Assembly (NCBI GenBank): GCA_016303095.1
Contig: JAEDMH010000001.1
Location: forward strand, 1-57,584
Length of the DNA: 57,584 bases
DNA from: Lentisphaeria bacterium
GTDB lineage: Bacteria; Verrucomicrobiota; Lentisphaeria; Oligosphaerales; Oligosphaeraceae
Reading direction: 5' to 3'
The notes under the pieces are model-generated. The model was given only the letters and a program-made list of their open reading frames with translations, had not been told where the DNA came from and ran no database searches. How positions within the stretch are numbered: the first letter of the stretch is position 1; every line of letters begins with the position of its first letter. A program made the translations under genes and the position numbers. Shown one piece after another: positions 7,630 through 39,701 of the stretch.

Positions 7630-8648
7630 GGAAGGAAGGGCGGGGGGGCGGTGGCCTGGATCTTCAATCGGGGGATGGCGAGTTTCCAGGCGTGGAGTGC
7701 CTGGGTGGGGAGGAGCAGCCTCTGCCAGTCCTGGGGAGAGAGGGTGCTGGTGGCGAAGCGGAGGAAAATGGTGTCGTCCACCCCGTAGAGCTTGTCTCCC
7801 ACCACGGGGAATCCCAAGGAACAGAGAGTGGCGCGGATTTGGTGTGTCCTTCCCGTATGGAGGGTGGCTTCCAGGAGGGAGAAGTTTCCCTGTTCGTCCT
7901 GGGGGAAGCGTCCTGGGGGTTCCCCTGGGGTAGGGGGGCGTCGATAGTCCAGGAGCCGGAAGTCCGTTTGGGCGGTGACGGCTTCCTCGTCCTCGGGGAG
8001 TTCCACCACGTCGGAATCCCCCTGGTTGAGGATGGGCTGGAAGCACCGTTTTTTCTCCACGGGGGAGTGGGGATCCTTCATGAGCCAGCCGTTGGCGAAA
8101 TAGTGCTTCCAGGGCACTCGTCCATGGACGAGGACCAGATATTTCTTCTGGGTTTCTCCGCAGAGGGAGTGGAAGAGTTTAGCGGCGGTGGCGGCGAAGC
8201 GCGGGTTTTTGCCCACCAGAACGATGCCGGAGGTCTCCCGATCCAGTCGATTGACGAAGTGGATGTGAGAGAGATGGCGCGCCTGGCGCAGCCACGCCCA
8301 AAGGGTGTGGTTGAAGAAGCGTCCCGCCGGGTGGCAGGGGAGATTCCCGGGCTTGTGGAGAAGCAGATAATCCTCCTGCTCCTCCAGAATTTGGATTTGG
8401 AAGGAAACCTCCTGCTCCTCCAGATCCCCTGCCTGGAAGAACAACACTTCGCCCCCGCGGAGGGGGGTGTGTTCCTGGGCGGCGGCGCCGTCCAGGAAGA
8501 GGTTTCCTCGCTGGATTTCCTGATGCCACTGTTCCCGGTTGAGATAGTTGTAGCGCAGGGTGAGAAAATCCAGGAGGGAGGAGCCGGCGGCATCGGGGGG
8601 CGTCACCACCTGGACCGTGCGCTCCATGGGAGGGAAGGGGAGGATCAT
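7614..8648 (-). CDS. RluA-family pseudouridine synthase with S4-like N-terminal domain
   Basis: Contains HRLDRETSG-like FVNRLDRETSGIVLV and GRTHQIRATL motifs. The start at 8648 (MILPFPPMERT) forms an ATGA overlap with the upstream gene's stop. The longer ORF to 9131 was rejected. Confidence 0.85.
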   Translation of the reverse strand: MILPFPPMERTVQVVTPPDAAGSSLLDFLTLRYNYLNREQWHQEIQRGNLFLDGAAAQEHTPLRGGEVLFFQAGDLEEQEVSFQIQILEEQEDYLLLHKPGNLPCHPAGRFFNHTLWAWLRQARHLSHIHFVNRLDRETSGIVLVGKNPRFAATAAKLFHSLCGETQKKYLVLVHGRVPWKHYFANGWLMKDPHSPVEKKRCFQPILNQGDSDVVELPEDEEAVTAQTDFRLLDYRRPPTPGEPPGRFPQDEQGNFSLLEATLHTGRTHQIRATLCSLGFPVVGDKLYGVDDTIFLRFATSTLSPQDWQRLLLPTQALHAWKLAIPRLKIQATAPPPFLPHGLG

Positions 8649-10603: not shown

Positions 10604-11287
10604 TCAGGAAACCGGGGCCTCCAAAAGATCTTCCAGTTGACCCAGAAGGGATGGCAGAAGACGGTTCCTCTCCTGAATCCCCGGAAGAGCGTCCCAAAAT
10701 TCCTGGGAGGCGCTCCCTCCGATATAGTTGGAGAGATACCGAACGATGGCCACAGGAATCCGACGCCCCAGAACCGGCTCCATCAGACGACAGAAATGAA
10801 CCACCGCGGGACTCTCCATGTCCACCCCATCCGCCTGGGCCTCGATCCGGTTGTCCTCCCGATAGTATTTGGCATTGTCAAAGACATCCCCGGCGGAGAT
10901 GCGCCCTGTGCCGCAGAAGGGAGTGGTGGGAAAATGGAGGGGAAGCAACTGGGTCAGGAGCTGGGTGAAGCGGGGATCGCAGGGCATCCAGCACTGCTCC
11001 CCAACCTGGGGCACGAAGCCCAGGCCATCGGAACCATAGAGGGGAGAGACGTCATAGTCGCTATAGGCTACCTGGCTGGCCACCAGCAGCCCCCCCAGAG
11101 GCAGAGAACGCTTCAGAGCGCCTGCCGTCCCCCAGACCAAAATGGCCTCGCATTGATCCTGGAACAGGAGTTTGGCCACGGCGGCGCAGGCGGCGGTCTT
11201 GCCCGGGCCAAAGCCGGTGGCGCAGGCCAGGGCAGGGGGAAGGCCCTCCGCTTCCTCCCGGGTGGGGATGAGAACTCCGATTTTCAT
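10604..11287 (-). CDS. PNP_UDP_1-family nucleosidase (MTA/SAH nucleosidase or futalosine hydrolase-like)
   Basis: 227 aa. MKIGVLIPTREEAEGL, GFGPGKTAAC, VWGTAGAL and GVDMES blocks match the nucleoside phosphorylase/nucleosidase fold. Confidence 0.65.
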   Translation of the reverse strand: MKIGVLIPTREEAEGLPPALACATGFGPGKTAACAAVAKLLFQDQCEAILVWGTAGALKRSLPLGGLLVASQVAYSDYDVSPLYGSDGLGFVPQVGEQCWMPCDPRFTQLLTQLLPLHFPTTPFCGTGRISAGDVFDNAKYYREDNRIEAQADGVDMESPAVVHFCRLMEPVLGRRIPVAIVRYLSNYIGGSASQEFWDALPGIQERNRLLPSLLGQLEDLLEAPVS

Positions 11288-11330
11288 CTTTGTATTTATA
11301 ACTGCTTTATATTTAATGAGTTATAAAGAA

Positions 11331-12353
11331 TCACCCAAATTCGTTCCAGGGAATGCGGACAGGGGCGCCCTGGTTGATGATTTCATCCAGGTGTCGCAGC
11401 AGGGGGAATTTGTTGAAATTGGCGGTGCCCCGTTGGTGTCTGGTGCGCAGGGCCCTGGCCGCCCGGGTGATGATGGGGATGGATTCCAGGGTCAAGCCGG
11501 GGTACAGTTTCAGAGCCTCCTGGAAGGGGATTCCCTCTCCCAGGGCCTCCCCCAGCTTTCTGTTTCGTCCGGAGTTGATGGTGACGTACAGGTCGCTGGT
11601 GGCGTAGATGACGCTGTCGGTCTGTCCTCCCAGGAGATGGACCAGCCGGAGCATTTCCCGGACGGCCTGTCCGAAGAGAGAGGCCTGGGGATTGCTCATG
11701 GCCACCCCCTGTTGTTTGGCCAGGCCGATGGCCAGGGAGACGCCCACGGCATAGGCGTTTTTCATGGCCACGGCGCATTCGATGCCCATGACATCCTGGG
11801 TTGGCTGGATGTGGTAGTAGGTGGTGATGAGCTGGGATTTCAGCCAGTAGAGGGTGTCCAGATCTTCGCCGCAGAGGGCCACGGAGGTGTGTTTCCGCTG
11901 GCAGAGTTCCTGGCTGATGCAGGGGCCGCCGATGGAGTTGATGGAGAGCTTGCGTCCCGGCGCCAGTTTCTTCTGGTTGTAGGCCATGGAGATGGGGAGG
12001 AGGGTGCCGTCCGGCTCGTCCTCCAGTCCCTTGGTGATGGAGAGCACCACCAGGGTGTCGGGAACGCGGGAGAGGACATGTTCCGCAAACCAGTCCACGC
12101 CGAAGGAGGGGACGCCGGCGATGAGGAGCTGGCATCCCTCCAGGGCCTGATCCAGCTCCTCGTAGTAGAAGGCGGTGCACCGGGGAGGCAGGGGCATGGC
12201 CAGCTTGGGATGGAAGTTGTCCGTCCGGATGCGCTGGATGATTTCCTGGTCGTAGGGGGTTCCCACCAGACGAACGGCATGTCCGTTGTCCGAGGCGGGA
12301 AAGCACATGGCGGACCCCATCATGCCGGCGCCGACGATGGTGATGATGCTCAT
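11331..12353 (-). CDS. NAD(P)H-dependent glycerol-3-phosphate dehydrogenase-like oxidoreductase
   Basis: N-terminal Rossmann motif IVGAGMMGSAM, a length of 340 aa and central GPCISQE-type segments resemble the GpsA family. Confidence 0.7.
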   Translation of the reverse strand: MSIITIVGAGMMGSAMCFPASDNGHAVRLVGTPYDQEIIQRIRTDNFHPKLAMPLPPRCTAFYYEELDQALEGCQLLIAGVPSFGVDWFAEHVLSRVPDTLVVLSITKGLEDEPDGTLLPISMAYNQKKLAPGRKLSINSIGGPCISQELCQRKHTSVALCGEDLDTLYWLKSQLITTYYHIQPTQDVMGIECAVAMKNAYAVGVSLAIGLAKQQGVAMSNPQASLFGQAVREMLRLVHLLGGQTDSVIYATSDLYVTINSGRNRKLGEALGEGIPFQEALKLYPGLTLESIPIITRAARALRTRHQRGTANFNKFPLLRHLDEIINQGAPVRIPWNEFG

Positions 12354-12377
12354 GGAGTGTTCGGAGAAAGAGGGGGG

Positions 12378-14363
12378 CTAGAGGGCGTCCTGCACTTCCT
12401 GGCGGAAGGAGAGGGCGGGCAGGCCCGCCTGGTTGACCAGATTCCCTTCGGGCAAGTCCACCTTGCCGTTGTATTGGCAGAGGACGGGATGGGGGACTTC
12501 CGGATGGGAGAGGAGGAGTTCCTCTCCCTGGAGGGTGGCCTGGGCAGGGCGGAGGATGCCGTCCTTTCCCGCCATCTCGAAGCCTGCCAGGGGCTGTCCG
12601 TCCTTGGCGTGGAGCCCCTTCCCGTAGAGGAAATGGAGGCGGAGGGAGGCGCCTTCCCGGGTCACCCGATCCAGGGTTGGGCCCTGGGGCAGAACGCCCT
12701 CTTCCCCATAGAGATTGGCCAGGGCCAGGAGGAAGAGCCGGTATCCGAAGGAGCGCTTGTCATGGGGGTGGATGTCCGTGGGCTCGAAGAGGGCCAGATC
12801 CGTGGCGGTGATGACGCCCGTCTCCGGGGTCTCCAGGAAGACCCTCCGCTGGGCATCCTGAATCTTCAGCCAGTTTTCGGGATGGAGATCCCGGTAGTTG
12901 GCCAGCTGGACGAAATAGAAGGGGAAGTCCTCCCGCTGCCCCCAGGCGTGGCGCCAATCCTCAATGAGATCCCGGAAGCGCATGGCGTAGAGGGCGGTGG
13001 TTTCGTCGGTGTCCGCATCGTTCTCTCCCTGGTACCAGAGGACTCCCCGAATGGGGAAGGGGATCAGGGGGCGGATCTTGTTGTCGAAGAGGCGATGGGG
13101 GGAATTTCGGCAGCAGATGGGGTTGGCGGCCTGTTCCGGTCCTCCCAGGGGTTGGAAGGCGTACTCCGGCCAGGCCTTCCAGAGGGTGTCGGCCAGGGGG
13201 AGGGTTTCTCCCGTGGTCAGGTTCTCCAGGAAGTAGGCCCGCTTGGAGCCGGTGAAGCCGGCGTCGAAGAAGAAGCAGTAAGCCCGGATGGCCACCACGT
13301 TGCGTCCCGCCTTCACCGCCTGGGGAGGCACGGGGTAGTTCCGGGGGGTGCACCAATACTGGGTGTCGAATCCCGTCCCCGTGGCGCCCACCTGCACCCC
13401 GTTGAAATAGGTCACGTCGTGCTTGTCCACGCCTCCCAGATGGAGCATCAGGGGTTGGCCTTCCCAGGAGGGGGGCAGGGTCACTTCCCGGCGCACCCAG
13501 AGGGACCCGTGGCTGGAGATCTTCTGGATGATCCAGGAACCGGGAACTTCCATGGTCTTCCAGGAGGAGTCGTCATAGTCCGGATTGGCGTAGCCCAAGG
13601 CGAATCCCCGGTTGCCCGGATCCATCTGGGTGATATGGTCGAAGCATTGGTTGTCCTCGTTGATGCAGTCGGGGAAGGAGGCGTGGGTCTCCAGGCAATC
13701 CCAGGACTCCGGGCGGTAGACGCAGGCATCGTCCTTCTCCAGAAGCTTGTAGTTTTCCGGGCGTCGGGAGAGGGTCTCCCGGCTGGTCCACGCGTGGACG
13801 AAGGTGCCGCCCCAGGAGGAGTGGATCAGCCCCACGGGAATCTGGGGGAACTTTTGCCGGTGGAAGAGGGCGAACCAGGCGCCGATGGCGGTGAAGCCGG
13901 CGGCTGTGTCGGGAGAGGAGAGCTGCCATTCCCCTCCGGGCGGCAGGGTCTCCGGACGGGTGGCCAGGGTGTCATTGGGGGTGGTGAAGCAACGGATGAG
14001 GGGGTCGTTGCCCCCCTCCTGCAAATACTGTCCGGTCTGCTCCAGGGGATCCCCGGGGGAAAAGGTCATCAGGGGAAACTCCGCATTGGACTGGCCGGAA
14101 ACCAGCCAGGTCTCCCCCACCAGCAGATCCCGGCAGACACATTCCTCGTTCTTGCAGGTCACCCGGAGCTCCAGGGGGCCGCCCTCCGCCAGAGAGGGGA
14201 AACGCAGCTCAAAGCGGCCGTCCCAGGAGCTGGGGGCGTAGGCGGAGAGGGATCCCAGGGTGGCATGGACCATGGCGCGGGGGGTGTCGCACCAGCCCCA
14301 GACGACGATGGGCTTGTTGCGTTGGATGACGGCGTGGTCGGACCAGATGGCGGGCAGTCTCAT
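12378..14363 (-). CDS. Sialate O-acetylesterase-like carbohydrate esterase
   Basis: MRLPAIWSDHAVIQRNKPIVVWGW N-terminus plus LVSGQSN, WYQGEND and a C-terminal beta-sandwich, as in the SASA/9-O-acetylesterase family. Confidence 0.75.
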   Translation of the reverse strand: MRLPAIWSDHAVIQRNKPIVVWGWCDTPRAMVHATLGSLSAYAPSSWDGRFELRFPSLAEGGPLELRVTCKNEECVCRDLLVGETWLVSGQSNAEFPLMTFSPGDPLEQTGQYLQEGGNDPLIRCFTTPNDTLATRPETLPPGGEWQLSSPDTAAGFTAIGAWFALFHRQKFPQIPVGLIHSSWGGTFVHAWTSRETLSRRPENYKLLEKDDACVYRPESWDCLETHASFPDCINEDNQCFDHITQMDPGNRGFALGYANPDYDDSSWKTMEVPGSWIIQKISSHGSLWVRREVTLPPSWEGQPLMLHLGGVDKHDVTYFNGVQVGATGTGFDTQYWCTPRNYPVPPQAVKAGRNVVAIRAYCFFFDAGFTGSKRAYFLENLTTGETLPLADTLWKAWPEYAFQPLGGPEQAANPICCRNSPHRLFDNKIRPLIPFPIRGVLWYQGENDADTDETTALYAMRFRDLIEDWRHAWGQREDFPFYFVQLANYRDLHPENWLKIQDAQRRVFLETPETGVITATDLALFEPTDIHPHDKRSFGYRLFLLALANLYGEEGVLPQGPTLDRVTREGASLRLHFLYGKGLHAKDGQPLAGFEMAGKDGILRPAQATLQGEELLLSHPEVPHPVLCQYNGKVDLPEGNLVNQAGLPALSFRQEVQDAL

Positions 14364-14560
14364 GGTAAGGAAGAGGAAAGGGAAGGGGGCGGTGTGGGTG
14401 GGGGGAGAAGGAGGCGGGGGGGCCTCGTCTTCTGGGGTTCAGGGGAAAGTCAGGGGAGAAATATAATCAAAGTAGGCGGAACGTAGGGGGAGAAATTGGG
14501 GCTAAATTAGGCCTCGTGCCTTGGGGCGGACGGCCTCAGGGGCAGGGAGACATTGGTACC

Positions 14561-29043: not shown

Positions 29044-30423
29044 ATGCTCTCCGCCTATCTGAATTGCTTTAAGATTCCGGAATTGAGAAAGCGCCTCTTC
29101 TTCACCTTCGCCATGATTGCGCTGGTGCAGCTGGCGGCCGCCATCCCCTGTCCGGGGATTGATCCCGCCCGCTTGAAGGAGCTCTTCGGCAATCTGAACA
29201 GCGATGCGGGCGCCTCGGGCATCATGGGCATGCTGAATCTTTTCAGCGGCGGAGCCATGGAGAAGTTTGCCATTGGCGCCTTGGGCATCATGCCCTACAT
29301 CTCCGCTTCCATCATTCTTCAGCTCATGACTCCCGTCATTCCTGCCCTGAGCAAGATGACCCGGGAAGGAGAGAGTGGAATGCAGCAATACAATTTCATC
29401 ATGCGCTTGTTGACGGTGGGCGTGGCCATTGTCCAGGGCGTGATGTTCTCCATGGCCATGATGGAACCCTCCCGGGTGGGCCTGGGAAATGTCTCCGTGG
29501 TGTCCAATCCCGGCGCGGGCTTCATCCTGCAAACGGTCATCATCCTTACGGGCGGCTCCATGTTCATCACCTGGCTGGGGGAGATGGTGACAGAGCGGGG
29601 CGTGGGAAATGGCGCCTCTCTCATCATCACCGTGAATATCGTGGCGAGAATCCCCAGCGCCCTGGTGAGTCTCTATCAAATGGTCTTCATGGGCAGCGCC
29701 ACCGGAGAAAGCCAGCTGACCATTCTCCATCTCCTGATCCTGGTTGTCCTCTTTGTTGCGGTGACGGTGGGCGCCATCGTCCTCACGGAAGGCATGCGGA
29801 AGATTCCCGTGCGCTATGCCCAGCAGCGCTCCATGGGATTCCTGGGCCGCTCCACCGGGGTGCAGACGACCTATCTCCCTCTCCGGGTCAACTACGCCAA
29901 CGTGATGCCCATCATCTTCGCCGGCGCCATCCTTTCCTTTGTGGAAATGGGAATCCGCTATCTCCCCTTGAATGGGGTCACCCAGTGGATCAGCACCAAG
30001 TTGGCCTATGGCTCCCCCAGCTATCTGGTGATCTACGCCGCCCTCCTTCTCCTCTTCTCCTTCTTCTGGGTGGCCAACCAGTTCAACCCTATCCAGATCG
30101 CCGATGATTTCCAGAAGAACAACGGCTACATCCCCGGCATCCGCCCCGGCAAGCCCACCAGCGATTTCCTGGATCACGCCATGACCCGCATTACCCTGGC
30201 CGGCGCCATCGGCTTGCTGATCCTGGCCATCCTGCCTATGGTTCTGGCTACCTCTTTCCTGAAAATCCCCCATACCATCGCCCAGTTCTTCGGCGGCACC
30301 AGCCTCCTCATCATTGTGGGCGTGATGTTGGATACCATGCGGCAGATCCAAACCTACCTCATCAGCCGCAACTATGATGGATTCCTCTCCAAGGGAATCC
30401 TCCGGAACGGACGGACGATGTAG
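29044..30423 (+). CDS. secY: Preprotein translocase subunit SecY
   Basis: 459 aa and 10 TM helices. IPELRKRLFFT, GIMPYISASII, GGTSLLI and VGVMLDT motifs. Confidence 0.95.
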   Translation: MLSAYLNCFKIPELRKRLFFTFAMIALVQLAAAIPCPGIDPARLKELFGNLNSDAGASGIMGMLNLFSGGAMEKFAIGALGIMPYISASIILQLMTPVIPALSKMTREGESGMQQYNFIMRLLTVGVAIVQGVMFSMAMMEPSRVGLGNVSVVSNPGAGFILQTVIILTGGSMFITWLGEMVTERGVGNGASLIITVNIVARIPSALVSLYQMVFMGSATGESQLTILHLLILVVLFVAVTVGAIVLTEGMRKIPVRYAQQRSMGFLGRSTGVQTTYLPLRVNYANVMPIIFAGAILSFVEMGIRYLPLNGVTQWISTKLAYGSPSYLVIYAALLLLFSFFWVANQFNPIQIADDFQKNNGYIPGIRPGKPTSDFLDHAMTRITLAGAIGLLILAILPMVLATSFLKIPHTIAQFFGGTSLLIIVGVMLDTMRQIQTYLISRNYDGFLSKGILRNGRTM

Positions 30424-30493: not shown

Positions 30494-30585
30494 CAGGGAC
30501 ATGGATATCTCAGGATTCCCGCTCCTCCCAACGGCAAGAAAAATGATTCCCTACGCCGCATGGATAGGAGATCGATATGCAATTC

Positions 30586-30689
30586 GCTGAAAACGCATGA
30601 AAAGGAAAGAACAATCTTGATTTCTTAAAAAATTTTTCTATAATACCCTTGTTCCGCTTCGGATTTTCCCGTTGCCCATCTTTCTCTCC
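30586..30689. repeat. Promoter/5'UTR cassette, copy 1 (~104 nt, AT-rich)
   Basis: Aligns without gaps to 31631..31734 with only a few substitutions (gctgaaaaYgca..ggaaagaacaatcttgatttcttaaaa..ttctataata..gttccgcttYggattttcccgttgcccatctttctctcc). Confidence 0.8.
30617..30644 (+). promoter_or_regulatory. Near-consensus sigma70-type promoter TTGATT-N16-TATAAT driving paralog P1
   Basis: TTGATT at 30617-22 and TATAAT at 30639-44, separated by an AT-rich spacer. GAAGGAG RBS at 30692-98 lies 5 nt before ATG 30704. Confidence 0.55.
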
Positions 30690-30703: not shown

Positions 30704-31621
30704 ATGTCCATGAGGCCGGTTCTTTGTCTTTCCCTTCTTTGTTGCTTCCTGTTTCTGGGTGGTGCCGAAGAGGACTACCGTGCCCATTTGGAGAAGGCCT
30801 TTGAGGTGATGGCCACTCGCACCATGGAGTATCAACACGCGGTGGGCATGGGGAAAGGGAGAAAGAAAGTGGTTTTCTACCAGATTCTTCAGGAGGGGAG
30901 GGCAGATGGTAGTGTTGTCCGCAGGGAGAGGAGACTTGGGCCGCTGGAAAAGACACCCCGGGAGAAGTTCCCTCTTGGGGCCTTTACTTTTGAATCCTAT
31001 TTCACGGACGAGGGATTTACCAAAGTGTATATCAGTCGAGAAAAACGAAGGGGAATACGGATGAAGCAATCGATTCCCCACCGGAGAATCCCTGCGGAAG
31101 CGAGAGTGTCGGGTCAGGTGGAACAACAGGGAGATGAGGCGTGCTGGAAGATTCAGGTGAAATGGCCGAAGGATGAATCGGGTGTGGAACGGAGGAGTGA
31201 ATATCTCGTTTCCCAGAGGGAATCTGTCCTTTATCGAGAAAGGGATTTTGATGGAAACGGACGTCTCCAGATGGAGGTAAAAAATGAGAATTTCAATTTC
31301 CATCCCCAGTCCTCACAGAAGGAATTTCGTCTCCCCCCATTGGATGAAATCCATTTTGCCAAGAATGCCCAGGAATTTTCAGAGATGTGTCAGAACGTGA
31401 CCTGGGAAATTGTCCAGGAGGCCATTCCGGAGTCCCGGGGAGGGACGAGAAAGAGCCCCTTGGCGAGGAAAGAGGGCTTTTCCCTTCGTTCCTGGCGACG
31501 CCTTCACCGTTCTCCCGTGCGGTCCGCTACCTGTGGCGTTCTGCTTCTGGCGGTGCTCTCCTTGGGCACCGCCCTGGCGCTGAAAAGTCGGAGTAAAAGG
31601 GGCGTATCGGTCGACCAATGA
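30704..31621 (+). CDS. Island paralog P1: signal peptide, ~230-aa periplasmic domain (LolA/RseB-like fold suspected), C-terminal TM helix and basic tail
   Basis: [21 protein letters not shown] signal. Family motifs YFTDEGFTKVYIS, ACWKI, RESVLYRERDFDGNG and NFNFHP..FRLPP. C-terminal [23 protein letters not shown]. Protein-level homology to four other ORFs in the island. Confidence 0.85.
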   Translation: MSMRPVLCLSLLCCFLFLGGAEEDYRAHLEKAFEVMATRTMEYQHAVGMGKGRKKVVFYQILQEGRADGSVVRRERRLGPLEKTPREKFPLGAFTFESYFTDEGFTKVYISREKRRGIRMKQSIPHRRIPAEARVSGQVEQQGDEACWKIQVKWPKDESGVERRSEYLVSQRESVLYRERDFDGNGRLQMEVKNENFNFHPQSSQKEFRLPPLDEIHFAKNAQEFSEMCQNVTWEIVQEAIPESRGGTRKSPLARKEGFSLRSWRRLHRSPVRSATCGVLLLAVLSLGTALALKSRSKRGVSVDQ

Positions 31622-31630
31622 GGGCCATTT

Positions 31631-31734
31631 GCTGAAAATGCAAAAAAAGGAAAGAACAATCTTGATTTCTTAAAATTTTTTTCTATAATACTTTTGTTCC
31701 GCTTTGGATTTTCCCGTTGCCCATCTTTCTCTCC
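31631..31734. repeat. Promoter/5'UTR cassette, copy 2
   Basis: Second copy of the 30586..30689 cassette, located upstream of the rhodanese-led operon. Confidence 0.8.
31662..31689 (+). promoter_or_regulatory. Near-consensus promoter TTGATT-N16-TATAAT driving the rhodanese-to-pseudopilin operon
   Basis: TTGATT at 31662-67 and TATAAT at 31684-89. Same geometry as copy 1. Confidence 0.55.
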
Positions 31735-31768
31735 TTCTTCGATGAGACAAGAGGTTAGGGAGGCAGAA

Positions 31769-32248
31769 ATGAAAATTCTACGGTGTCAGTCCATCCGAGA
31801 GTGCCTTTTGATTCTCCTCGTGGGAAGCCTTTGCCTGGGAAGTTTCTGGGACGGAGCGCAGGGGCGCAGGATGTCAGTGCCTAGGGAACGGCCTCGACAG
31901 AAGCAGGCGGACGCCATTGATCTTGTGGGGGTGCTGGGGTTGCTCCAGCAGTATGAGGATCGAGTGCTCCTGGTGGACGTGCGTCCCCGCCCGCAATATG
32001 AGACAGGACATATTCCTTACTCCTGCCCGGCCTATCCTCCCAGTTGCACCTGCGAACTGAGCCAGGAACTCTTGGAGCAGGGAAAGAAAGCGGATTTTGT
32101 GGTGGCGCTGGGGGTGCGGGGACAAGATTTTTCTCCTTTTCTCGCTCATTTCTCCCAGGAGGCTCGTTGCCCCGTGTTTCTTTACGAGGGAGGAATTTCC
32201 GAATGGAAGGGATGTGGCCTTCCTTGGGAGGGGGAGAAAGCAGAATGA
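31769..32248 (+). CDS. Exported rhodanese-homology-domain protein (no Cys in the expected catalytic loop)
   Basis: ATG 31769 after GAGGTTAGGGAGG. Signal/anchor CLLILLVGSLCLGSFW. Rhodanese blocks LLVDVRPRPQYETGHIP, FVVALGVRGQD and LYEGGISEW. The upstream TTG-start part of ORF 31694 is the duplicated noncoding cassette. Confidence 0.7.
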   Translation: MKILRCQSIRECLLILLVGSLCLGSFWDGAQGRRMSVPRERPRQKQADAIDLVGVLGLLQQYEDRVLLVDVRPRPQYETGHIPYSCPAYPPSCTCELSQELLEQGKKADFVVALGVRGQDFSPFLAHFSQEARCPVFLYEGGISEWKGCGLPWEGEKAE

Positions 32249-32667
32249 AACAGGGCCTCTTTCGCGGTGTGGCATGGGGACGCCGGGTGACTTGTCTCCT
32301 TTCTCTGCTGTTGCTTTTGAAGGGACCGGGACGCTTTGTGGAACTGGGGACGATCCTGGGCGCCTGGCCACTGGGGGCCTTGGCCTACATTCTTCTGGCC
32401 GGATACAGCGCCCTGTGGTGCGCCCGCCTGTGGTGCGGAACCCTTTCCCCGGGGGATAAGGGAGGAATGGCCTGCTCCCTGATCCTCTCCCTGTGTGTCC
32501 TGGCCATGGCCTTCGCTCCCTCTCTTCAGGCCTGCCACTGTGTTTCCTGGAATCCAGCTCAACTCTTCAGCCCCTACTGGAGATTTCTCCTGTGGTCAGG
32601 GTTGTGGCTAGGGGCAGAGATTCTTTCCTGCTGGTGGTTCACGCACAAAAAAGGAGATGTCCCATGA
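32245..32667 (+). CDS. Small 4-TM membrane protein with loop cysteines (MauE/DoxX-like or DsbB/VKOR-like, tentative)
   Basis: 140 aa with ATGA overlaps at both ends. Four hydrophobic helices. WCARLWC (CX4C) follows helix 2 and ACHC (CXC) follows helix 3. Pairing with a rhodanese is typical of MauE-family proteins. Confidence 0.6.
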   Translation: MKQGLFRGVAWGRRVTCLLSLLLLLKGPGRFVELGTILGAWPLGALAYILLAGYSALWCARLWCGTLSPGDKGGMACSLILSLCVLAMAFAPSLQACHCVSWNPAQLFSPYWRFLLWSGLWLGAEILSCWWFTHKKGDVP

Positions 32668-32897
32668 AACGAATCCTGCTTCTTCTTTCTTTTGTCCTGG
32701 TTGGAGTCTTGTTTCACCTCTTCTCCGAGGAAGTGGTCATTAGTTGCCAGGCACGGTGCTATGACCTTTACCAAGCGTATTACGAAGATTGCTGGGTCGC
32801 ATACTGGAATGACTGGGATGCGGCGCGGGACTGCGTGGATAAGATTGACGCAATGCGGGCGAAATGTGTGGCCAATTGTGAGCCAGAAGAGAATTAG
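32664..32897 (+). CDS. Small secreted six-cysteine protein A (CX3C-X10-C-X13-C-X10-CX3C)
   Basis: 77 aa. AAGGAG RBS 7 nt upstream and ATGA overlap with the preceding gene. Signal MKRILLLLSFVLVGVLFHLFS. The Cys scaffold is shared with ORF 38488..38754. Confidence 0.7.
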   Translation: MKRILLLLSFVLVGVLFHLFSEEVVISCQARCYDLYQAYYEDCWVAYWNDWDAARDCVDKIDAMRAKCVANCEPEEN

Positions 32898-32919
32898 CAG
32901 TTTTTACCCAGGAGCGTAG

Positions 32920-33797
32920 ATGTCCATGAGGCCGGTTCTTTGTCTTTCCCTTCTTTGTTGCTTCCTGTTTCTGGGTGGTGCCGAAGAGGACTACCGTGTC
33001 CATTTGGAGAAGGCCTTTGAGGTGATGGCCACCCGCACCATGGAGTATCGGGAACTGGTGGGGATGGGGAAGTGGGGAAGAAGCAAGATGAAGGTCTATC
33101 AATGTCAGAAGCCAGACGGACGCACCCTCCGGGTGGAGAAGGGATCGTGGAATGAGAAATGGGAACCCCGGGAGAAATTGCCTCCCGGGGTATCGGATAC
33201 TCACTTCTATTATACCGACGAGGGGTTTACCTACGTGTATGTCAGCCGGGAGAAGATTCGTGGCATCCGCATGAAGCAAGGAATCCCCCGAAAGAAGGTG
33301 GAGCCGGGGGACAAAATCACGGGCAAAACGGATGAGGAGGTGGACGGGTTCCCCTGCTGGATCATCCGGAGGGATAGGGGCAAGAAAGCCGAAGGGGCGG
33401 TGAAGGTGGAGGAATATGCCGTGGACAAGGAGAGTTTTGTCATTCGCCGGGAGCGTGCCTTCAATGAGAATGGAGGGCTGCTTATGGAACGGAAGCGAAT
33501 CAACTTTCTCTTCTCTCCTGTCTTTGAAGAGGGACTGTTTCAAGTGCCTCCCCTGGATGAAATCGCCTTTGCCAAAGATGCCTGGGAAGAGGTGGAACAT
33601 GTCAAGAAGTTCTCTTGGGAGATTGTCCAGGAGGCCATTCCGGAGTCCCAGGGAGGGACAAGAAAGAGCCCCCTAGCGAGGAAAGAGGGCTTTTTCCTTC
33701 GTTCCTGGCGACGCCTTCGCCGTTCTCCCGTGCGGGCCGCTACCTGTGGCGTTCTGCTTCTGGCGGTCCTCTCCCTGGGCACCGCCCTGGCGCTGAA
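32920..33797. repeat. 878-bp direct repeat, copy 1 (covers P2)
   Basis: Near-identical to 34848..35725 at an offset of 1928 bp. The encoded proteins are identical until about residue 250. Only a handful of substitutions were seen by eye. Confidence 0.85.
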
Positions 33798-33834
33798 AAG
33801 CCGAAGGAAAAGGGGCGTATCGGTCGACCAATGA
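32920..33834 (+). CDS. Island paralog P2
   Basis: The signal and first ~43 aa are almost identical to P1. Motifs [35 protein letters not shown] and NFLFSP..LFQVPP. C-terminal TM plus KSRRKR tail. AGGAG RBS. Confidence 0.85.
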   Translation: MSMRPVLCLSLLCCFLFLGGAEEDYRVHLEKAFEVMATRTMEYRELVGMGKWGRSKMKVYQCQKPDGRTLRVEKGSWNEKWEPREKLPPGVSDTHFYYTDEGFTYVYVSREKIRGIRMKQGIPRKKVEPGDKITGKTDEEVDGFPCWIIRRDRGKKAEGAVKVEEYAVDKESFVIRRERAFNENGGLLMERKRINFLFSPVFEEGLFQVPPLDEIAFAKDAWEEVEHVKKFSWEIVQEAIPESQGGTRKSPLARKEGFFLRSWRRLRRSPVRAATCGVLLLAVLSLGTALALKSRRKRGVSVDQ

Positions 33835-33981
33835 GTGCCAAGTTTCTTCTTGGCTCTGAGGAAAGATTCCTTTTTCGAGAATTTCTGTTGAGGCTTCAAA
33901 GTTTTTTGCATGGTTCATTTTCTTCTTCACCATTCGTGGACTGGTTTTTGCCCCTCATGGGGCATGAGAATCTGAAACATC

Positions 33982-34857
33982 ATGTCCTTTCTTCGCTGTC
34001 TATTTTGGTTTTTCCTGAGTGGGGGTGTTCTGATTGCCCAGGAGGATTTTGGGGCGCACCTGCGTCTTGCCTCTGAGGTGATGGCCACAGCCACCATGCG
34101 CTATACGCGGACGGTGCGCATGGGGATGCCTGGGGGGCGGGGAGAACTTTCCTATGATGTGATTCAGGAGATGCAGCCTCATGGCACCCTGTTTCGAAGA
34201 GAGGAGTTGATGCATGAAGGGCGTCTTCTCCGTCGGGAGTCCCTGCGGGGAATCCAGGAAATCCAGCGGATCTATTACACAGACCAAGGGGAAAGCATCG
34301 TCTTTATCTCCGCAAGGTCGGTGCGCACCATATGCACTCCCGAGGCGGTTCGCCGGCTGACGTTCACTTCCGAGAGTCAATTCTCGGGAAAGGAGATCAC
34401 CTATGCCGGAGTCCCCTGCTGGGAAATCCATCACACACTAAAATGGCAAGGCAAGTCCCTTCCCCGGGACTACATCGTGGAAAAGGAAAGTCATGTCATT
34501 CGACGAGAAAGGCTTCTGGATGAGGATGGCCGCATGCTCAGCGAAACGACGTACGGAAACTTCTCCTTTGCGCCTCAGGTCTCTCCAGGACTTTTTCAGC
34601 CTCCCGCTCCAGATGTCCTATTCTTTGCCCGAACTCCCGAGGAATTGGGAGAGGCCTATCGTGGAGTGACAGAAGCGCGCACTCAGGATTTTTTGAGTGA
34701 AAAGAGCCGGAATCTGCCACGTCCTGTGGTCAAAGGCAGGAGCCGAATTTCTGCCTTTTTGAGGGGGAGGGTGGTCTTGGTGGCGGGAAGTCTCCTTTGC
34801 TTCGTGGCAGCCGTCGTCTTGAAGGGACTTCGAAAAAAAAGGAGACAATGTCCATGA
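33982..34857 (+). CDS. Island paralog P3 (divergent)
   Basis: Signal MSFLRCLFWFFLSGGVLIA. Motifs YYTDQGESIVFIS, VPCWEI, KESHVIRRERLLDEDG and NFSFAP..LFQPP. C-terminal TM plus LRKKRR tail. Overlaps the P4 start by 10 nt. Confidence 0.8.
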   Translation: MSFLRCLFWFFLSGGVLIAQEDFGAHLRLASEVMATATMRYTRTVRMGMPGGRGELSYDVIQEMQPHGTLFRREELMHEGRLLRRESLRGIQEIQRIYYTDQGESIVFISARSVRTICTPEAVRRLTFTSESQFSGKEITYAGVPCWEIHHTLKWQGKSLPRDYIVEKESHVIRRERLLDEDGRMLSETTYGNFSFAPQVSPGLFQPPAPDVLFFARTPEELGEAYRGVTEARTQDFLSEKSRNLPRPVVKGRSRISAFLRGRVVLVAGSLLCFVAAVVLKGLRKKRRQCP

Positions 34858-35725
34858 GACCGGTTCTTTGTCTTTCCCTTCTTTGTTGCTTCCTGTTTCT
34901 GGGTGGTGCCGAAGAGGACTACCGTGTCCATTTGGAGAAGGCCTTTGAGGTGATGGCCACCCGCACCATGGAGTATCGGGAACTGGTGGGGATGGGGAAG
35001 TGGGGAAGAAGCAAGATGAAGGTCTATCAATGTCAGAAGCCAGACGGACGCACCCTCCGGGTGGAGAAGGGATCGTGGAATGAGAAATGGGAACCCCGGG
35101 AGAAATTGCCTCCCGGGGTATCGGATACTCACTTCTATTATACCGACGAGGGGTTTACCTACGTGTATGTCAGCCGGGAGAAGATTCGTGGCATCCGCAT
35201 GAAGCAAGGAATCCCCCGAAAGAAGGTGGAGCCGGGGGACAAAATCACGGGCAAAACGGATGAGGAGGTGGACGGGTTCCCCTGCTGGATCATCCGGAGG
35301 GATAGGGGCAAGAAAGCCGAAGGGGCGGTGAAGGTGGAGGAATATGCCGTGGACAAGGAGAGTTTTGTCATTCGCCGGGAGCGTGCCTTCAATGAGAATG
35401 GAGGGCTGCTTATGGAACGGAAGCGAATCAACTTTCTCTTCTCTCCTGTCTTTGAAGAGGGACTGTTTCAAGTGCCTCCCCTGGATGAAATCGCCTTTGC
35501 CAAAGATGCCTGGGAAGAGGTGGAACATGTCAAGAAGTTCTCTTGGGAGATTGTCCAGGAGGCCATTCCGGAGTCCCAGGGAGGGACGAGACAGAGCCCC
35601 CTAGCGAGGAAAGAGGGCTTTTTCCTTCGTTCCTGGCACCGCCTTCGCCGTTCTCCCGTGCGGGCCGCTACCTGCGGCGTTCTGCTTCTGGCGGTCCTCT
35701 CCCTGGGCACCGCCCTGGCGCTGAA
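34848..35725. repeat. 878-bp direct repeat, copy 2 (covers P4)
   Basis: See 32920..33797. Confidence 0.85.
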
Positions 35726-35762
35726 GATGGGGAAGAGAAAAGAAAACCAGGAGGTCCTATGA
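34848..35762 (+). CDS. Island paralog P4 (near-copy of P2 with a different extreme C-terminus)
   Basis: ATG 34848 after a GGAG RBS. Translation matches P2 apart from a few residues, plus a tail of [13 protein letters not shown] in place of LKSRRKRGVSVDQ. Confidence 0.85.
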
Positions 35763-36595
35763 GAGCAAAGAATCGATTCGCCACAGAACGGGCCAGGACG
35801 GGGCGTGCCTTTACCCTGGTGGAGTTGTTGACGGTCATGGGCATCATCGGCATCTTGGCCTCTCTGCTGTTGGGGGCGGTGTCCACGGCCCGGGGGCATG
35901 CCCGGCGGGCCGCCTGTCTGAACAACCAGCGGCAGACCCTGCTGGCCATGCAGATGTATGCGGGGGACTACAATGGCAACATGATGGTCTGCGCCGGCTT
36001 CAACGAGAATGACGTGTGGGCCTACAAGGCGGTGCTGGGCACCTCTTCCGACTGGCGGAAGCAGGCGATAGAACGCTATGGGCGTGCCCTGGGAGGAAAA
36101 TTCTCCCTGGGGTATCTTCCGGAGGAGGCCACCAGCTGTCCCAATGGCCACTTTGTTTCCTGGCGCACCACCTGGTGCTATGCCACTCCCCAGACCCATC
36201 GGGTCTGGCCTCTGGCCTATGGCGCCCTGGAGGGGGTGGTGACCCTGAAGGGATTCGACCAGATCTTCCGGTTTGACAGCTCCCCCCTCTCCGCCTCTCG
36301 CACGTATGTGTTGAGCGATTCCTGCTTTGCCGAGCAGTCGAAGATCACCTACAATGGATACAAGCCGGATGTGGAGACCTATCGCATGCACACCGGCTCC
36401 TCCGGCGCTGACGAACTGGCCGCGGCCCGCCATGGACGGAAGATCAATGTGGGCTTCTGGGATGGCCACGGAGAATCCATGGACTGCCAGTCTGCCGCCG
36501 AACTTTTCTCCAAAGGCACCAAATCCACGGTCACCTACATCTTTGTGGATGGAGTATTGGAGGAGTTCGAAACCTCCGGAAGCCTGGAGGATTAG
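35759..36595 (+). CDS. Prepilin-type N-terminal cleavage/methylation protein with H-X9-DG C-terminal motif (pseudopilin-like)
   Basis: [24 protein letters not shown] class-III signal and [13 protein letters not shown] (H-X9-DG). AGGAGG RBS and ATGA overlap with the P4 stop. Confidence 0.85.
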
Positions 36596-36766
36596 CCACT
36601 CTGTCTTTTCCTCCGGAGAGGTTTTTTCCGGGGGAAAGGGGGAATTTGGGAGGATTCGGGAGGCCAAGCCGGGAAAAAGGGACACATTACCCTGCATTCG
36701 TCTTCTCAAAGCCAGGGAAGTCCCATTCCCTCATGTTGCGTTGCCATCTTCCATTCCACCATCGTC

Positions 36767-38248
36767 ATGGAGTATTACTATCAGGGACAGTTGAGACTTC
36801 AGCTCTTTGGGGGCTCTCCCAACGTGACAGCCACCGTGCTTCTCTTTGCTTTCTTCCTGGTGCTGGGAGGAGTGGCCTTTGCCCGCCAGCGCATTCCGGG
36901 AAAACGCTGGCTTTGGGCAGGGGTGCCAGGATATCTTCTGTGTCTCCTGCTCCTGGAGGGATTGTTTCTTACCTATTCCCGGGGAGGCATGGTGGCCCTG
37001 GCCGTGGGATTGCTCTTCCTGGTCTGGAAAGAATGGCGCCTCCTGATTCCTCTCCTGGTGCCGGGACTCCTCCTGCTGGCCTTTACCCCTGCGGGCCTGA
37101 ATCGGGTCAAGGCGGTGGGAAATCTCCAAGACCGCTCCATCGGAAACCGGCTGATTCTCTGGTATCATGGATCGGGGATGATTCTGGACTATTGGAAGAA
37201 AGGGGTGGAGGTGGAGGCCTGCGGCACCCATTATACAAAATGGTATAAACCATTGGAGCAGAAGGTGGAAGGATATCGCGGCATGGTGAACGGGTATTTG
37301 ACCTACATGGGCAACCACGGATTGCCCAAGGCTTTCCTGGTCTTCTGGGGACTCTTCTTCCTGGTCTGCTGCACCCTGGATCTGGGCTATCTCAGGAATA
37401 TGCCCTTCTACCGATGTCTGGGGGCGGGAATGCTCTCCATGGCGGTCTGCGAGGTCTTCAGCACCATGTTCATCTTCCCCTCCATCCGGTGGTGCATGGG
37501 AATCGGCGGCGCCCTTGCCTTGGCAGGATTCCTCTGGAGCCATCGGGATGTCTGGCGCCGGCAGGCGGGGGCGCTGGCGACTCTGGGAAGAAGATTCGCA
37601 AGGCTGGCAGGCGCCGGTGCCCTCCTGGCTCTTCTCCCTCTTCTTGTGGTGGCGGTGATGGGATCCCTCGCCCGCCGAGAACAGTATTACCGCAGAACCA
37701 CGGGAACCCTGTCTCTGGATGGGAAGACGATGGCCTTTCAGCAATTCACGGCGAATCATCCCAATGGACGATGGATTCTCCATCTGGCGGGAAATGTGGA
37801 GGAGGAGGCCCGCAGCCGCATCCTGCCTCTGTGCCAAGCCGGCTACGGAGTTCTTTCCCTGGAAGGGGCAGAGAGATGGTCCTCCGAGGAAATGGATCGA
37901 AGACTCCCCTTGCTCCTGGCAAGACGGGAAAATCCCCCGTTCTCCGTTCTGATGGTTTCCGGAGGCCTGCCTGCCAATTGCGTTTTCCGTAGGTTCTGCG
38001 AAAAACGCCCGGAGAACATCTCGTGCCTGGTGCTCTGGGAACCCATTTGGCAACATCCCATGGAGGAGTATTCCCTGGAAGCCATGGACATTCCCGAAGG
38101 AGGCCACGTCCTGTTCCTGGAGGACGAGGAATGGGGACATTCCATGGGGGAAGCCTATGGAAAGACCCAGAAAGAAGAACGTGCAATCCAGGTTCCCTCG
38201 GGAGACCAGCTGGCCGAGGCCCTGGGAACCGCCTTGGAGGAACACTGA
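36767..38248 (+). CDS. Short O-antigen-ligase-like (Wzy_C-type) membrane protein with a soluble C-terminal domain
   Basis: About 8 TM helices. LTYSRGGMVALAVGLLFL resembles the Wzy_C core. It seems to lack the first ~4-5 helices of typical WaaL/Wzy_C proteins. The C-terminal ~190 aa are soluble and alpha/beta-like, with no clear GxSxG. Confidence 0.6.
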   Translation: MEYYYQGQLRLQLFGGSPNVTATVLLFAFFLVLGGVAFARQRIPGKRWLWAGVPGYLLCLLLLEGLFLTYSRGGMVALAVGLLFLVWKEWRLLIPLLVPGLLLLAFTPAGLNRVKAVGNLQDRSIGNRLILWYHGSGMILDYWKKGVEVEACGTHYTKWYKPLEQKVEGYRGMVNGYLTYMGNHGLPKAFLVFWGLFFLVCCTLDLGYLRNMPFYRCLGAGMLSMAVCEVFSTMFIFPSIRWCMGIGGALALAGFLWSHRDVWRRQAGALATLGRRFARLAGAGALLALLPLLVVAVMGSLARREQYYRRTTGTLSLDGKTMAFQQFTANHPNGRWILHLAGNVEEEARSRILPLCQAGYGVLSLEGAERWSSEEMDRRLPLLLARRENPPFSVLMVSGGLPANCVFRRFCEKRPENISCLVLWEPIWQHPMEEYSLEAMDIPEGGHVLFLEDEEWGHSMGEAYGKTQKEERAIQVPSGDQLAEALGTALEEH

Positions 38249-38487: not shown

Positions 38488-38754
38488 ATGAAAGGTGTTC
38501 TTGTTTCTCTTGTCTTTGTTCTCCTCGGTACAGGGCTGGCCCTAAGTCGAACCATGGTCCTCGCCGAACAGAATGAATTGTGCCGGTTGGCCTGTAATAA
38601 GAATGACAATGATCAAGTCGCGATTTGCAATCGGGAGTTTGGTGCTGGCGGCCCCCAGGAGAGTGAAGAGAGGAGGTTGGCTTGTCTCCTTGCCGCCGAC
38701 AAATCTTGGCGTTTATGCATGTCCGGTTGTTCTGATGCGGAGGTTGACAGATGA
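38488..38754 (+). CDS. Small secreted six-cysteine protein B (CX3C-X10-C-X18-C-X10-CX3C)
   Basis: 88 aa. AAGGAGG RBS 7 nt upstream. Signal MKGVLVSLVFVLLGTGLALS. Same Cys spacing as protein A except for the central loop. ATGA overlap with the P5 start. Confidence 0.7.
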   Translation: MKGVLVSLVFVLLGTGLALSRTMVLAEQNELCRLACNKNDNDQVAICNREFGAGGPQESEERRLACLLAADKSWRLCMSGCSDAEVDR

Positions 38755-39701
38755 GACGGGAAGAAAGGCATAAGGGCGTTCTGGCCTGGTTTTCCCCGAG
38801 GTGGAGAGGAATTTGCCGCACCTGGTTTGGGTGGGCCCTGATTCTTTGTTTGATGGCGGGGCAGGGGGCAGGGGGGGAGGAGCAGGATTGGGAAAGACTC
38901 CTTCGGGAGGCGGAGGCAACCATGCGACAGGCCACCATGACCTTCCGGCAACGGATCGGCCTGGGGAATGCCTCCTCCCAAACCAAGACGGAGGTGCTGG
39001 TATGGCAGAAAGGGGCTGGCGATGGCACGGTGCAACGGAGGATGGAGATTGCGGGAACGGGGTCTCAACCGGAGAACCTGCGGGGAGGACAGATGCTTTT
39101 CCGCACCTACTACAACGACCAGGGAAGAACGGAGGTGATTTTCTGGCAGGACAAGTGCTGGGGCATTCGCGTCCCCGCCGCCATCCCCCGATTTTTCCCG
39201 GAGACCCCGGCCCTGTTCTCCGGCAAGGAAAGTCTTTTTCACGAATATCCTTGCTGGGAAATCACCCGACACTACCAGGATAAAAACGGAAATGCCCTGC
39301 AGGATGTCTATCAGGTGGATCGGGAACACCGCGTCATTCGCCAAATGCGCTCCTTTAACGCCCAGGGAATGCCCACCTTCGCCTGCACCTACGAGGATTT
39401 CGATTGGCACCCCACCTTCCCTCCTGAACTCTTCCAACTGCCTCAGAAACTCCAGCTCTCTCTGGCGAAAAACGAGGAGGAGTTCACAAAAAAGAAAAGC
39501 CAGGCGATGGAGGAACTGACCAGGGAATGGAATCGGCGAGAAAAGGGGCGCAAAAACATCCCCTCTTTTCCTTGGCAAGAACGATGGAAAAGACGGATGA
39601 GGCATGCCTCTGGGCGCTTCGCACTCCTTGGCCTGGCCTTAGGATCCTTCCTCCTCCTGGGGCTGGGGATCGCCCTGAAGGTCCGGACAAAAAAAATGTG
39701 A
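38751..39701 (+). CDS. Island paralog P5 (most divergent)
   Basis: N-terminal anchor/signal WFGWALILCLMAGQGAG. Motifs YYNDQGRTEVIFW, YPCWEI, REHRVIRQMRSFNAQG and DFDWHP..LFQLP. C-terminal TM FALLGLALGSFLLLGLGIALK plus VRTKKM tail. Confidence 0.8.
   Translation: MRREERHKGVLAWFSPRWRGICRTWFGWALILCLMAGQGAGGEEQDWERLLREAEATMRQATMTFRQRIGLGNASSQTKTEVLVWQKGAGDGTVQRRMEIAGTGSQPENLRGGQMLFRTYYNDQGRTEVIFWQDKCWGIRVPAAIPRFFPETPALFSGKESLFHEYPCWEITRHYQDKNGNALQDVYQVDREHRVIRQMRSFNAQGMPTFACTYEDFDWHPTFPPELFQLPQKLQLSLAKNEEEFTKKKSQAMEELTREWNRREKGRKNIPSFPWQERWKRRMRHASGRFALLGLALGSFLLLGLGIALKVRTKKM

Follow-up and report, generated by a model that had tools for sequence, protein, structure and literature searches.

The window, which is the whole 57,584-nucleotide (nt) stretch analyzed here from contig JAEDMH010000001.1 of an uncultured Lentisphaerota bacterium, carries between secY and rplK a five-copy tandem multigene family whose members we designate P1 to P5. 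The ends of genes P1 and P2 share a far more recent ancestor than do their centers, a pattern that is due to recombination or gene conversion and not to diversifying selection, and the centers are old, stable types rather than hypervariable sequences. The array occupies an island that begins after secY and is bordered on its other flank by rplK-rplA-rplJ-rplL-rpoB; the GC content of the island (∼30.4-39.8 kb) is 52 to 58%, compared to ∼62% in the flanks. P1 to P4 are four similar open reading frames (ORFs) on the forward strand after secY, P5 is a distant fifth paralog, and all five are complete ORFs with an ATG start codon, a signal peptide, and an anchor. The elements of the P1/P2 comparison are as follows.

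29044-30423: secY, end of the spc ribosomal operon
30704-31621, + strand: P1, an ORF made up of a 5' shared segment, a type A center, and a 3' shared segment
30694-30832, + strand: P1 shared 5' segment, with the ribosome-binding site, the signal peptide (30704-30763), and the helix alpha1 box AEEDYR..TMEY (30764-30832)
30833-31402, + strand: P1 type A center, coding for a predicted LolA/RseB-like half-barrel; 54% nt identity to type B
31403-31627, + strand: P1 shared 3' segment, with the end of the post-barrel helix, the basic linker, the WRRLxRSPVR box, the membrane helix, the basic tail, and the stop codon plus 6 nt
32920-33834, + strand: P2 (slot 2), with a shared 5' segment (32910-33048), a type B center (33049-33615), and a shared 3' segment (33616-33840)

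Mosaic structure of P1 and P2

A preliminary description of this DNA had reported that the first ∼130 nt of P1 and P2 differ at only 2 positions and the last ∼220 nt at a dozen to fifteen. Exact counting agreed with both figures, giving 2 differences between 30704-30833 and 32920-33049 (C/T at 30783 and T/C at 30817) and 14 between 31402-31621 and 33615-33834. The two protein islands that it had singled out in an otherwise diverged center, TDEGFT.VY.SREK.RGIRMKQ.IP and PPLDEI.FAK, are both present. When nt identity was calculated in sliding windows of 20 codons, the values were 1.00 to 0.93 over codons 1 to 50, 0.38 to 0.73 in the center, and 0.88 to 0.97 from codon 241 onward, and divergence is not uniform. 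A two-breakpoint maximum chi-square scan yielded a chi-square of 177 (compared to a maximum of 19 among 200 column permutations) and placed the breakpoints at aligned nt 129 and 690, corresponding to ∼30832/30833 and 31402/31403 in P1, with 259 differences in the 561 aligned central nt inside the breakpoints and 15 in the 345 nt outside. The similarity reaches slightly beyond the coding sequences, starting 10 nt 5' of the ATG (30694 in P1 and 32910 in P2), with the AGGAG ribosome-binding site included, and stopping 6 nt after the stop codon (31627 and 33840). In the P1 protein the breakpoints fall at residue 43 and at approximately residue 233, which identifies the exchanged cassette as the barrel; the shared ends code for the export signal and helix 1 on the 5' side and for the linker and anchor on the 3' side.

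Synonymous divergence of ends and center

Synonymous (dS) and nonsynonymous (dN) divergence between P1 and P2 were calculated for each segment by the Nei-Gojobori method.

5' end: dS 0.068, dN 0.058
Center: dS 1.9 (proportion of synonymous differences, pS, 0.69; saturated), dN 0.53
3' end: dS 0.149, dN 0.033

The dS values of the ends are 13 to 28 times below that of the center, for which the dN/dS ratio is ∼0.28. Among codons that specify the same amino acid in both genes, the identical codon is used in 95 of 103 cases at the ends versus 34 of 75 in the center (Fisher p = 3e-12). Saturated synonymous divergence in the center together with low synonymous divergence in the ends means that the segments differ in age, an outcome that selection on the protein cannot produce. 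Within a center type, comparisons between genomes gave dN/dS ratios of 0.15 to 0.23, indicating that the genes are functional and under constraint.

Centers and ends in the other paralogs and in related genomes

The remaining members of the family in the window are listed below.

33982-34857, + strand: P3, a type C paralog that is diverged over its full length and has its own anchor sequence
34848-35762, + strand: P4 (last slot), with a type B center identical to that of P2 and a slot-specific 3' tail
38751-39701, + strand: P5, a distant paralog (∼30% identity) with the same architecture and none of the shared boxes

P2 and P4 display the inverse of the P1/P2 pattern, being identical over 32932-33659 (728 nt), then showing 5 scattered differences, and ending in unrelated tails from 33798; of their 26 differences in total, all but one lie 3' of 33660/35588. 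The P3 gene shares only the 58-nt alpha1 box, at 72 to 78% identity, and it has orthologs in the related assemblies L001 (92%), L002, and L004.

For comparison with other genomes we used metagenome-assembled genomes (MAGs) of Oligosphaeraceae and Lentisphaeria together with metagenome contigs (designated L001 to L010), and 14 gene copies were compared segment by segment. This survey revealed the same conserved boxes on different centers in L001, L002, L003, L006, L007, and L008. The centers fall into the following types (W, window; g, gene number within an assembly).

Type A: W_P1 and L002 g1; no synonymous differences (pS 0.00), with nt identity that rounds to 100%
Type B: W_P2, W_P4, L001 g2, and L003 g2; 96 to 97% nt identity between assemblies
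Type C: W_P3, L002 g2, and L001 g1; 92 to 100% nt identity between assemblies
Type X: L001 g3 and g4

Between center types the nt identity is 43 to 54% and pS is 0.62 to 0.75, and the 34-codon anchor box is 84 to 97% identical at the nt level across the A, B, and X genes (pS 0.06-0.36). At the extreme tails, sequences cluster according to genome or position rather than center type. W_P1 and W_P2 have the tail ..SR(S/R)KRGVSVDQ in common, L001 g2 and g3 have ..HRKT, and the genes that stand last in their arrays, W_P4 (type B) and L001 g4 (type X), both end in ..KRKExxEV(L/P).

The occupancy of individual slots also varies. In L002 a type A center lies between the small Cys-rich ORF and P3, which is the position of P2, and the neighboring DNA is 96% identical to the window. 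In the same assembly, ∼290 nt of AT-rich sequence (865-1154) have no counterpart in the window and stand in place of the last part of the small Cys-rich ORF and of the portion of the slot-2 gene that codes for the signal peptide; this segment has the appearance of foreign DNA introduced by recombination at the helix box. The L001 g1 gene is a chimera in which a P1/P2-type 5' end is joined to a C-type (P3-type) body inside the 58-nt helix box. The last slot holds type B in the window and type X in L001, and in both genomes its center is an exact copy of that of a neighbor (P2/P4 and g3/g4, respectively) combined with a slot-specific 3' end.

The same behavior was encountered with other box sequences. 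An independent tandem pair in L008 has a different box sequence, with 64% nt identity and a pS of 0.67 in the center compared to 91 to 94% and 0.12 to 0.19 at the 3' end. The proteins P0021, P0024, and P0006 have a third anchor sequence in common on bodies that are ∼30% identical. Anchor sequences thus differ by lineage yet are common to the paralogs of one lineage, which is a signature of concerted evolution.

At 7993-9892, the L006 assembly (Lentisphaeria MAG281) contains a type B gene that is frameshifted and has a signal-peptide region different again from the others. This gene is located directly after tuf and nusG, and the array or part of the array is present in that genome at a different ribosomal-operon junction. 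A scan of Joint Genome Institute (JGI) metagenomes using the 3' anchor box gave 0 matches, and one using the 5' helix box gave 4 chance matches, none of which codes for a family member. Between genomes the dS of type B is 0.12 to 0.13, compared to 0.32 for SecY, 0.36 for type C, 0.74 for Wzy, and 0.085 to 0.115 for ribosomal proteins L18 and L1; relative to this background, the low value is at most suggestive of lateral exchange of type B.

Predicted fold and location of the proteins

The proteins are composed of a Sec signal peptide, a conserved N-terminal helix, a LolA/RseB-fold half-barrel, a basic linker, a C-terminal membrane helix, and a short basic tail. An AlphaFold2 model of P1, built on an alignment of 27 sequences, had a predicted local distance difference test (pLDDT) value of 87.9, with values above 90 for the strands. 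The model comprises the signal-peptide helix (residues 4-17), a helix that corresponds to the conserved box (25-38), an all-beta region (41-219), another helix (222-239), the disordered basic linker, and the membrane helix (271-298). Using Foldseek, 63 matches to the Protein Data Bank (PDB) were obtained at E <= 1e-3; the top matches were to RseB (3m4w and 2v42, probability 1.0, E = 7e-8, template modeling score 0.45-0.50), followed by LolA3, MucB, LolA, LprG, and ependymin. The modeled structure is an unclosed antiparallel beta half-barrel with an N-terminal helix, as in a LolA-like fold.

At the level of sequence families the resemblance is faint. The gathering threshold of Pfam PF17131 (LolA_like, 30 bits) was not reached by P2 (15.3 bits) or P3 (11.7 bits), and P1 gave no match; weak LolA_like matches at E <= 0.05 were seen for 6 of the 27 family members, the best at 3.6e-5. 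The paralogs had no match in NCBIfam and none above threshold in Pfam, and a profile search against PDB chain sequences returned no match. The family is rare. A word-indexed search of 5.8 billion proteins yielded 3 clusters when one sequence served as the query and 10 when a profile was used, and an exhaustive search of 1.8 billion representatives yielded 35 clusters at 50% identity. The N-terminal helix box is conserved at the protein level across the whole family, and the C-terminal membrane helix and basic tail are preceded by a semi-conserved W-x-R-x-x-R-x-P motif.

No NCBIfam or Pfam model for sorting signals of the PEP-CTERM, LPXTG, or GlyGly-CTERM kind matched the C-terminus, and no sortase-like gene was recognized nearby; a plain stop-transfer anchor explains the same C-terminal features as would a sorting signal. 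The predicted location of the proteins is the periplasmic face of the inner membrane, not the cell surface. On the basis of the modeled fold, we infer that they may be membrane-tethered periplasmic carriers of hydrophobic ligands (lipid or lipoprotein), with paralog-specific barrels and a common export and anchor module.

Neighboring genes, repeats, and promoter-like sites

The other features of the island are given below.

30579-30689, + strand: copy 1 of a 111-nt direct repeat, upstream of P1, with a promoter-like TTGATT-16-TATAAT at 30617-30644
31624-31734, + strand: copy 2 of the direct repeat, upstream of the rhodanese gene, with the same promoter-like hexamers at 31662-31689
31769-32248, + strand: secreted rhodanese-domain protein (Pfam Rhodanese, E = 7.7e-10)
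32245-32667, + strand: ORF for a small polytopic membrane protein with an ACHC motif
32664-32897, + strand: small secreted Cys-rich protein (CX3C...C...C...CX3C) directly upstream of P2; no family match
35757-36595, + strand: pseudopilin-like protein with a prepilin N-methylation motif and a DUF1559 start; its ATG overlaps the P4 stop codon
36767-38248, + strand: Wzy_C (O-antigen-ligase-like) membrane protein (Pfam Wzy_C, E = 9.9e-9)
38488-38754, + strand: second small secreted Cys-rich protein, directly upstream of P5, with the same Cys pattern as 32664-32897; no family match

The two copies of the 111-nt repeat are 91% identical and bracket P1, and the promoter-like sites within them are consensus matches only; L001 holds a single copy of this repeat. 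The island of L001 is shorter than that of the window and is without P1's center, the rhodanese, the ACHC protein, the small ORFs, and P5. In a BLASTP comparison of the two small Cys-rich ORFs with each other, the similarity was not significant. The pseudopilin-like and Wzy_C-like genes form a conserved right border of the array and are syntenic in L001 and L007; their order (35757-38248) recalls the pairs of pilins and O-oligosaccharyltransferases (pilA-tfpO/pilO). The stop codons of P1 and P2 lie within ATGAG(G/T)GCCA (31619-31630 and 33832-33843), which resembles the pseudopilin start where it overlaps the P4 stop codon (35757-35768, ATGAGAGCAAAG). This stop-codon motif probably remains from a duplication unit that also took in the beginning of the pilin gene.

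A distant, low-GC relative, L010 (contig of Logan SRR12711394, 698-4527), has a LolA-like gene, a rhodanese, a small ACHC membrane protein, a GxSxG hydrolase-like ORF, and a Wzy_C-like protein, arranged in this order as in the window. Its Wzy_C homolog is 33% identical to that of the window, and its gene after the rhodanese is weakly similar to the ACHC protein of the window, including the ACHC motif (pairwise E = 5e-4). The presence of the same gene combination in this distant genome suggests a functional module in envelope biogenesis.

A scan of the large upstream ORFs revealed no involvement of a mobile element, a recombinase, or a diversity-generating retroelement. Four long ORFs on the + strand (6154-7629, 7563-8954, 9023-10294, and 11172-14486, the last of 1104 amino acids) had no Pfam match at E <= 1e-5 and are candidate genes only; the remaining large ORFs scanned are housekeeping genes, namely those for S1, the shikimate pathway, and an epimerase. 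Phase variation was rejected because the paralog genes contain no simple-sequence repeats and an A8 tract at 34833 is of equal length in four assemblies.

Proposed mechanism and comparison to known systems

Of the two explanations for the mosaic offered in the preliminary description, recombination or gene conversion with a cassette-like exchangeable center is the one favored by the dS contrast, the identical-codon test, and the differing slot occupancy and chimeric genes in relatives. The mosaic itself, the contrast at synonymous sites, the modeled fold, and the chimeras and differing slots seen across genomes are demonstrated above, and we consider very probable the account in which segmental recombination homogenizes the ends and moves centers between positions. 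The barrel-coding centers are old, deeply diverged types (A, B, C, and X), each held by purifying selection. The ∼140-nt 5' and ∼225-nt 3' segments of the A, B, and X genes would be kept near-identical by non-allelic homologous recombination (gene conversion) and would serve as homology arms, by which whole centers could be copied or exchanged among gene positions as well as among strains. This process would account for the P1/P2 mosaic, the identical P2/P4 centers with position-specific tails, and the differing slot occupancy in relatives. The shared ends may serve all copies as a module for export and anchoring, and possibly for binding a partner as well, and the centers may confer different specificities for hydrophobic ligands (lipid or lipoprotein) in the periplasm, as the fold would suggest.

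Several points weigh against this account. P3 and P5 take no part in the 3' homogenization. The related assemblies are few and are mostly low-coverage MAG or metagenome contigs, with frameshifts in L006 and L007. Conservation of the N-terminal helix box across the family implies that purifying selection contributes to the 5' similarity. The direction and timing of single events are not resolvable, and homogenization of ends looks the same as replacement of centers event by event. Finally, the putative function is drawn solely from resemblance in the predicted fold.

The closest analog in mechanism is the babA/babB/babC system of Helicobacter pylori, in which the N- and C-terminal coding regions are nearly identical, the middle is divergent, and each middle type is conserved; locus occupancy varies by strain, and intragenomic gene conversion makes chimeras whose breakpoints lie within the regions of homology at the 5' and 3' ends (PMC4552749). 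The window array is like bab in its near-identical gene ends and diverged middle, with far lower dS at the ends (0.068 and 0.149 versus 1.9), in the conservation of middle types between strains (A rounds to 100%, B is 96-97%, and C is 92-100%), and in having differences in occupancy as well as chimeras (type A in slot 2 of L002, L001 g1, and B versus X in the last slot). It is unlike bab in four respects: the Bab proteins are beta-barrel outer-membrane adhesins (Hop), whereas LolA/RseB-like inner-membrane-tethered proteins are predicted here; the bab loci are dispersed rather than in a tandem array; bab has CT-repeat phase variation, of which none was seen here; and the bab host is a pathogen rather than an uncultured Lentisphaerota bacterium.

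Members of the LolA/LolB/RseB (MucB)/LprG superfamily resemble the present proteins in predicted fold and in export via a signal peptide, but LolA and RseB are soluble and LolB and LprG are N-terminally lipidated, whereas a C-terminal membrane anchor is found here. Compared to RseB/MucB, the window proteins have a single barrel without a second domain, and the island has no rpoE/rseA (mucA)-type sigma or anti-sigma gene. A recombining multi-copy array is a further difference from the members of the superfamily.

In the silent-cassette systems (Neisseria pilE/pilS, Anaplasma msp2, and Borrelia vlsE), conserved flanks guide segmental gene conversion of a variable center. The array shares with them the conserved flanks around an exchangeable center, but every copy here is a complete gene, there is no single expression site, and the center types are few and stable. 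Silent-cassette antigenic variation was rejected for the reason that all copies are complete ORFs with an ATG, a signal peptide, and an anchor.

Alternative explanations

A wider interpretation, which we consider quite doubtful, is that the array provides a strain-variable repertoire of inner-membrane-tethered LolA-like carriers. The ends would be selected as recombination arms, barrel exchange would re-program lipid or lipoprotein handling by an envelope module (the rhodanese, the ACHC protein, the Wzy_C-like protein, and the pseudopilin), and the C-terminal box, specific to each lineage, would be recognized by a shared partner or in an undescribed sorting step. If true, the locus would represent a cassette system that is embedded among housekeeping genes and diversifies the envelope in Lentisphaerota.

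Exchange could also have been selected to diversify an exposed recognition protein, as in a programmed variation system for antigens or receptors or an immunity-type locus. The conserved ends, exchangeable centers, and strain-variable slots do resemble bab, msp2, and pilS-type systems, and the GC content of the island is below that of its flanks, but the copies are all complete ORFs with start codons and do not comprise one expression site plus silent cassettes, neither a recombinase nor an invertible element nor a simple-sequence repeat was detected, the centers are few stable types under purifying selection, and the predicted site is the periplasmic face of the inner membrane instead of the cell surface. 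We regard such a system as decidedly unlikely. The earlier suggestion of a polymorphic recognition or immunity-type locus likewise found no support, given a LolA/RseB-like fold, neighbors that are envelope and housekeeping genes, and the finding of no toxin, immunity, recombinase, or phase-variation feature at the locus.

It is very unlikely that all segments are of the same age and that the ends are alike through constraint alone, whether on the protein (signal peptide, helix, and anchor) or on an element of the nucleotide sequence or RNA. At the protein level, the alpha1 helix box is indeed conserved across the family, the anchor may need to fit a common partner, and one terminator-like stem is present inside the 3' box. 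Synonymous codons are nevertheless identical too (95 of 103 in the ends versus 34 of 75 in the center), anchors differ between lineages yet are common to the paralogs within a lineage, and tails group by genome rather than by center type. An RNA-structure constraint on the boxes was rejected because the RNA folding z-scores are inconsistent between the 3' boxes of P1 (-2.2) and P2 (+0.6).

Recent duplication followed by strong diversifying selection on the ligand-facing center, with no recombination, was the second explanation given in the preliminary description, and we judge it extremely improbable. The dN of 0.53 in the center, compared to 0.03 to 0.06 in the ends, and the putative ligand-binding barrel encoded there would fit this explanation. 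Against it, synonymous sites are saturated in the center (pS 0.69, dS ∼1.9) and have a dS of only 0.07 to 0.15 in the ends, the dN/dS ratio is ∼0.28 between types and 0.15 to 0.23 within types that are conserved between genomes, and identical centers occur at different positions.

That the mosaic is an assembly product, made by chimeric joins or collapsed strain variants in a metagenome contig, is barely credible: the 728-nt identical P2/P4 stretch is not placeable by short reads alone and the relatives are MAGs, but specific differences distinguish the P1 and P2 ends, a 52-kb contig of another MAG (L001) has the same architecture, as do L002, L003, and L008 from other samples, and contigs break at the boxes as real repeats would cause. 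L004, which comes from a different read set, matches 33768-34889 at 100% identity and so confirms the succession of P2 3' end, P3, and P4 5' end. The short-read contigs of L004, L007, L009, and MAG302 end inside boxes, as follows from the boxes being true repeats. With the same boxes joined to different centers in independent assemblies, the end identity is not an assembly artifact.

Significance

Segmental recombination that homogenizes gene ends and moves centers between positions is an already known phenomenon; what is new is the uncharacterized LolA/RseB-fold family with a C-terminal anchor. The array, a tandem gene family of an uncultured Lentisphaerota lineage of the gut or rumen type, offers a clean, quantifiable case of segmental gene conversion and cassette exchange, and it lies outside the pathogen surface-protein systems in which such behavior is usually described. 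On the practical side, short-read assemblies break at the repeats, which in these MAGs can also lead to wrong orthology calls and wrongly transferred annotations. Should the barrels differ in cargo specificity, the family would provide a way into envelope-lipid or lipoprotein handling in the Planctomycetes-Verrucomicrobia-Chlamydiae (PVC) group.

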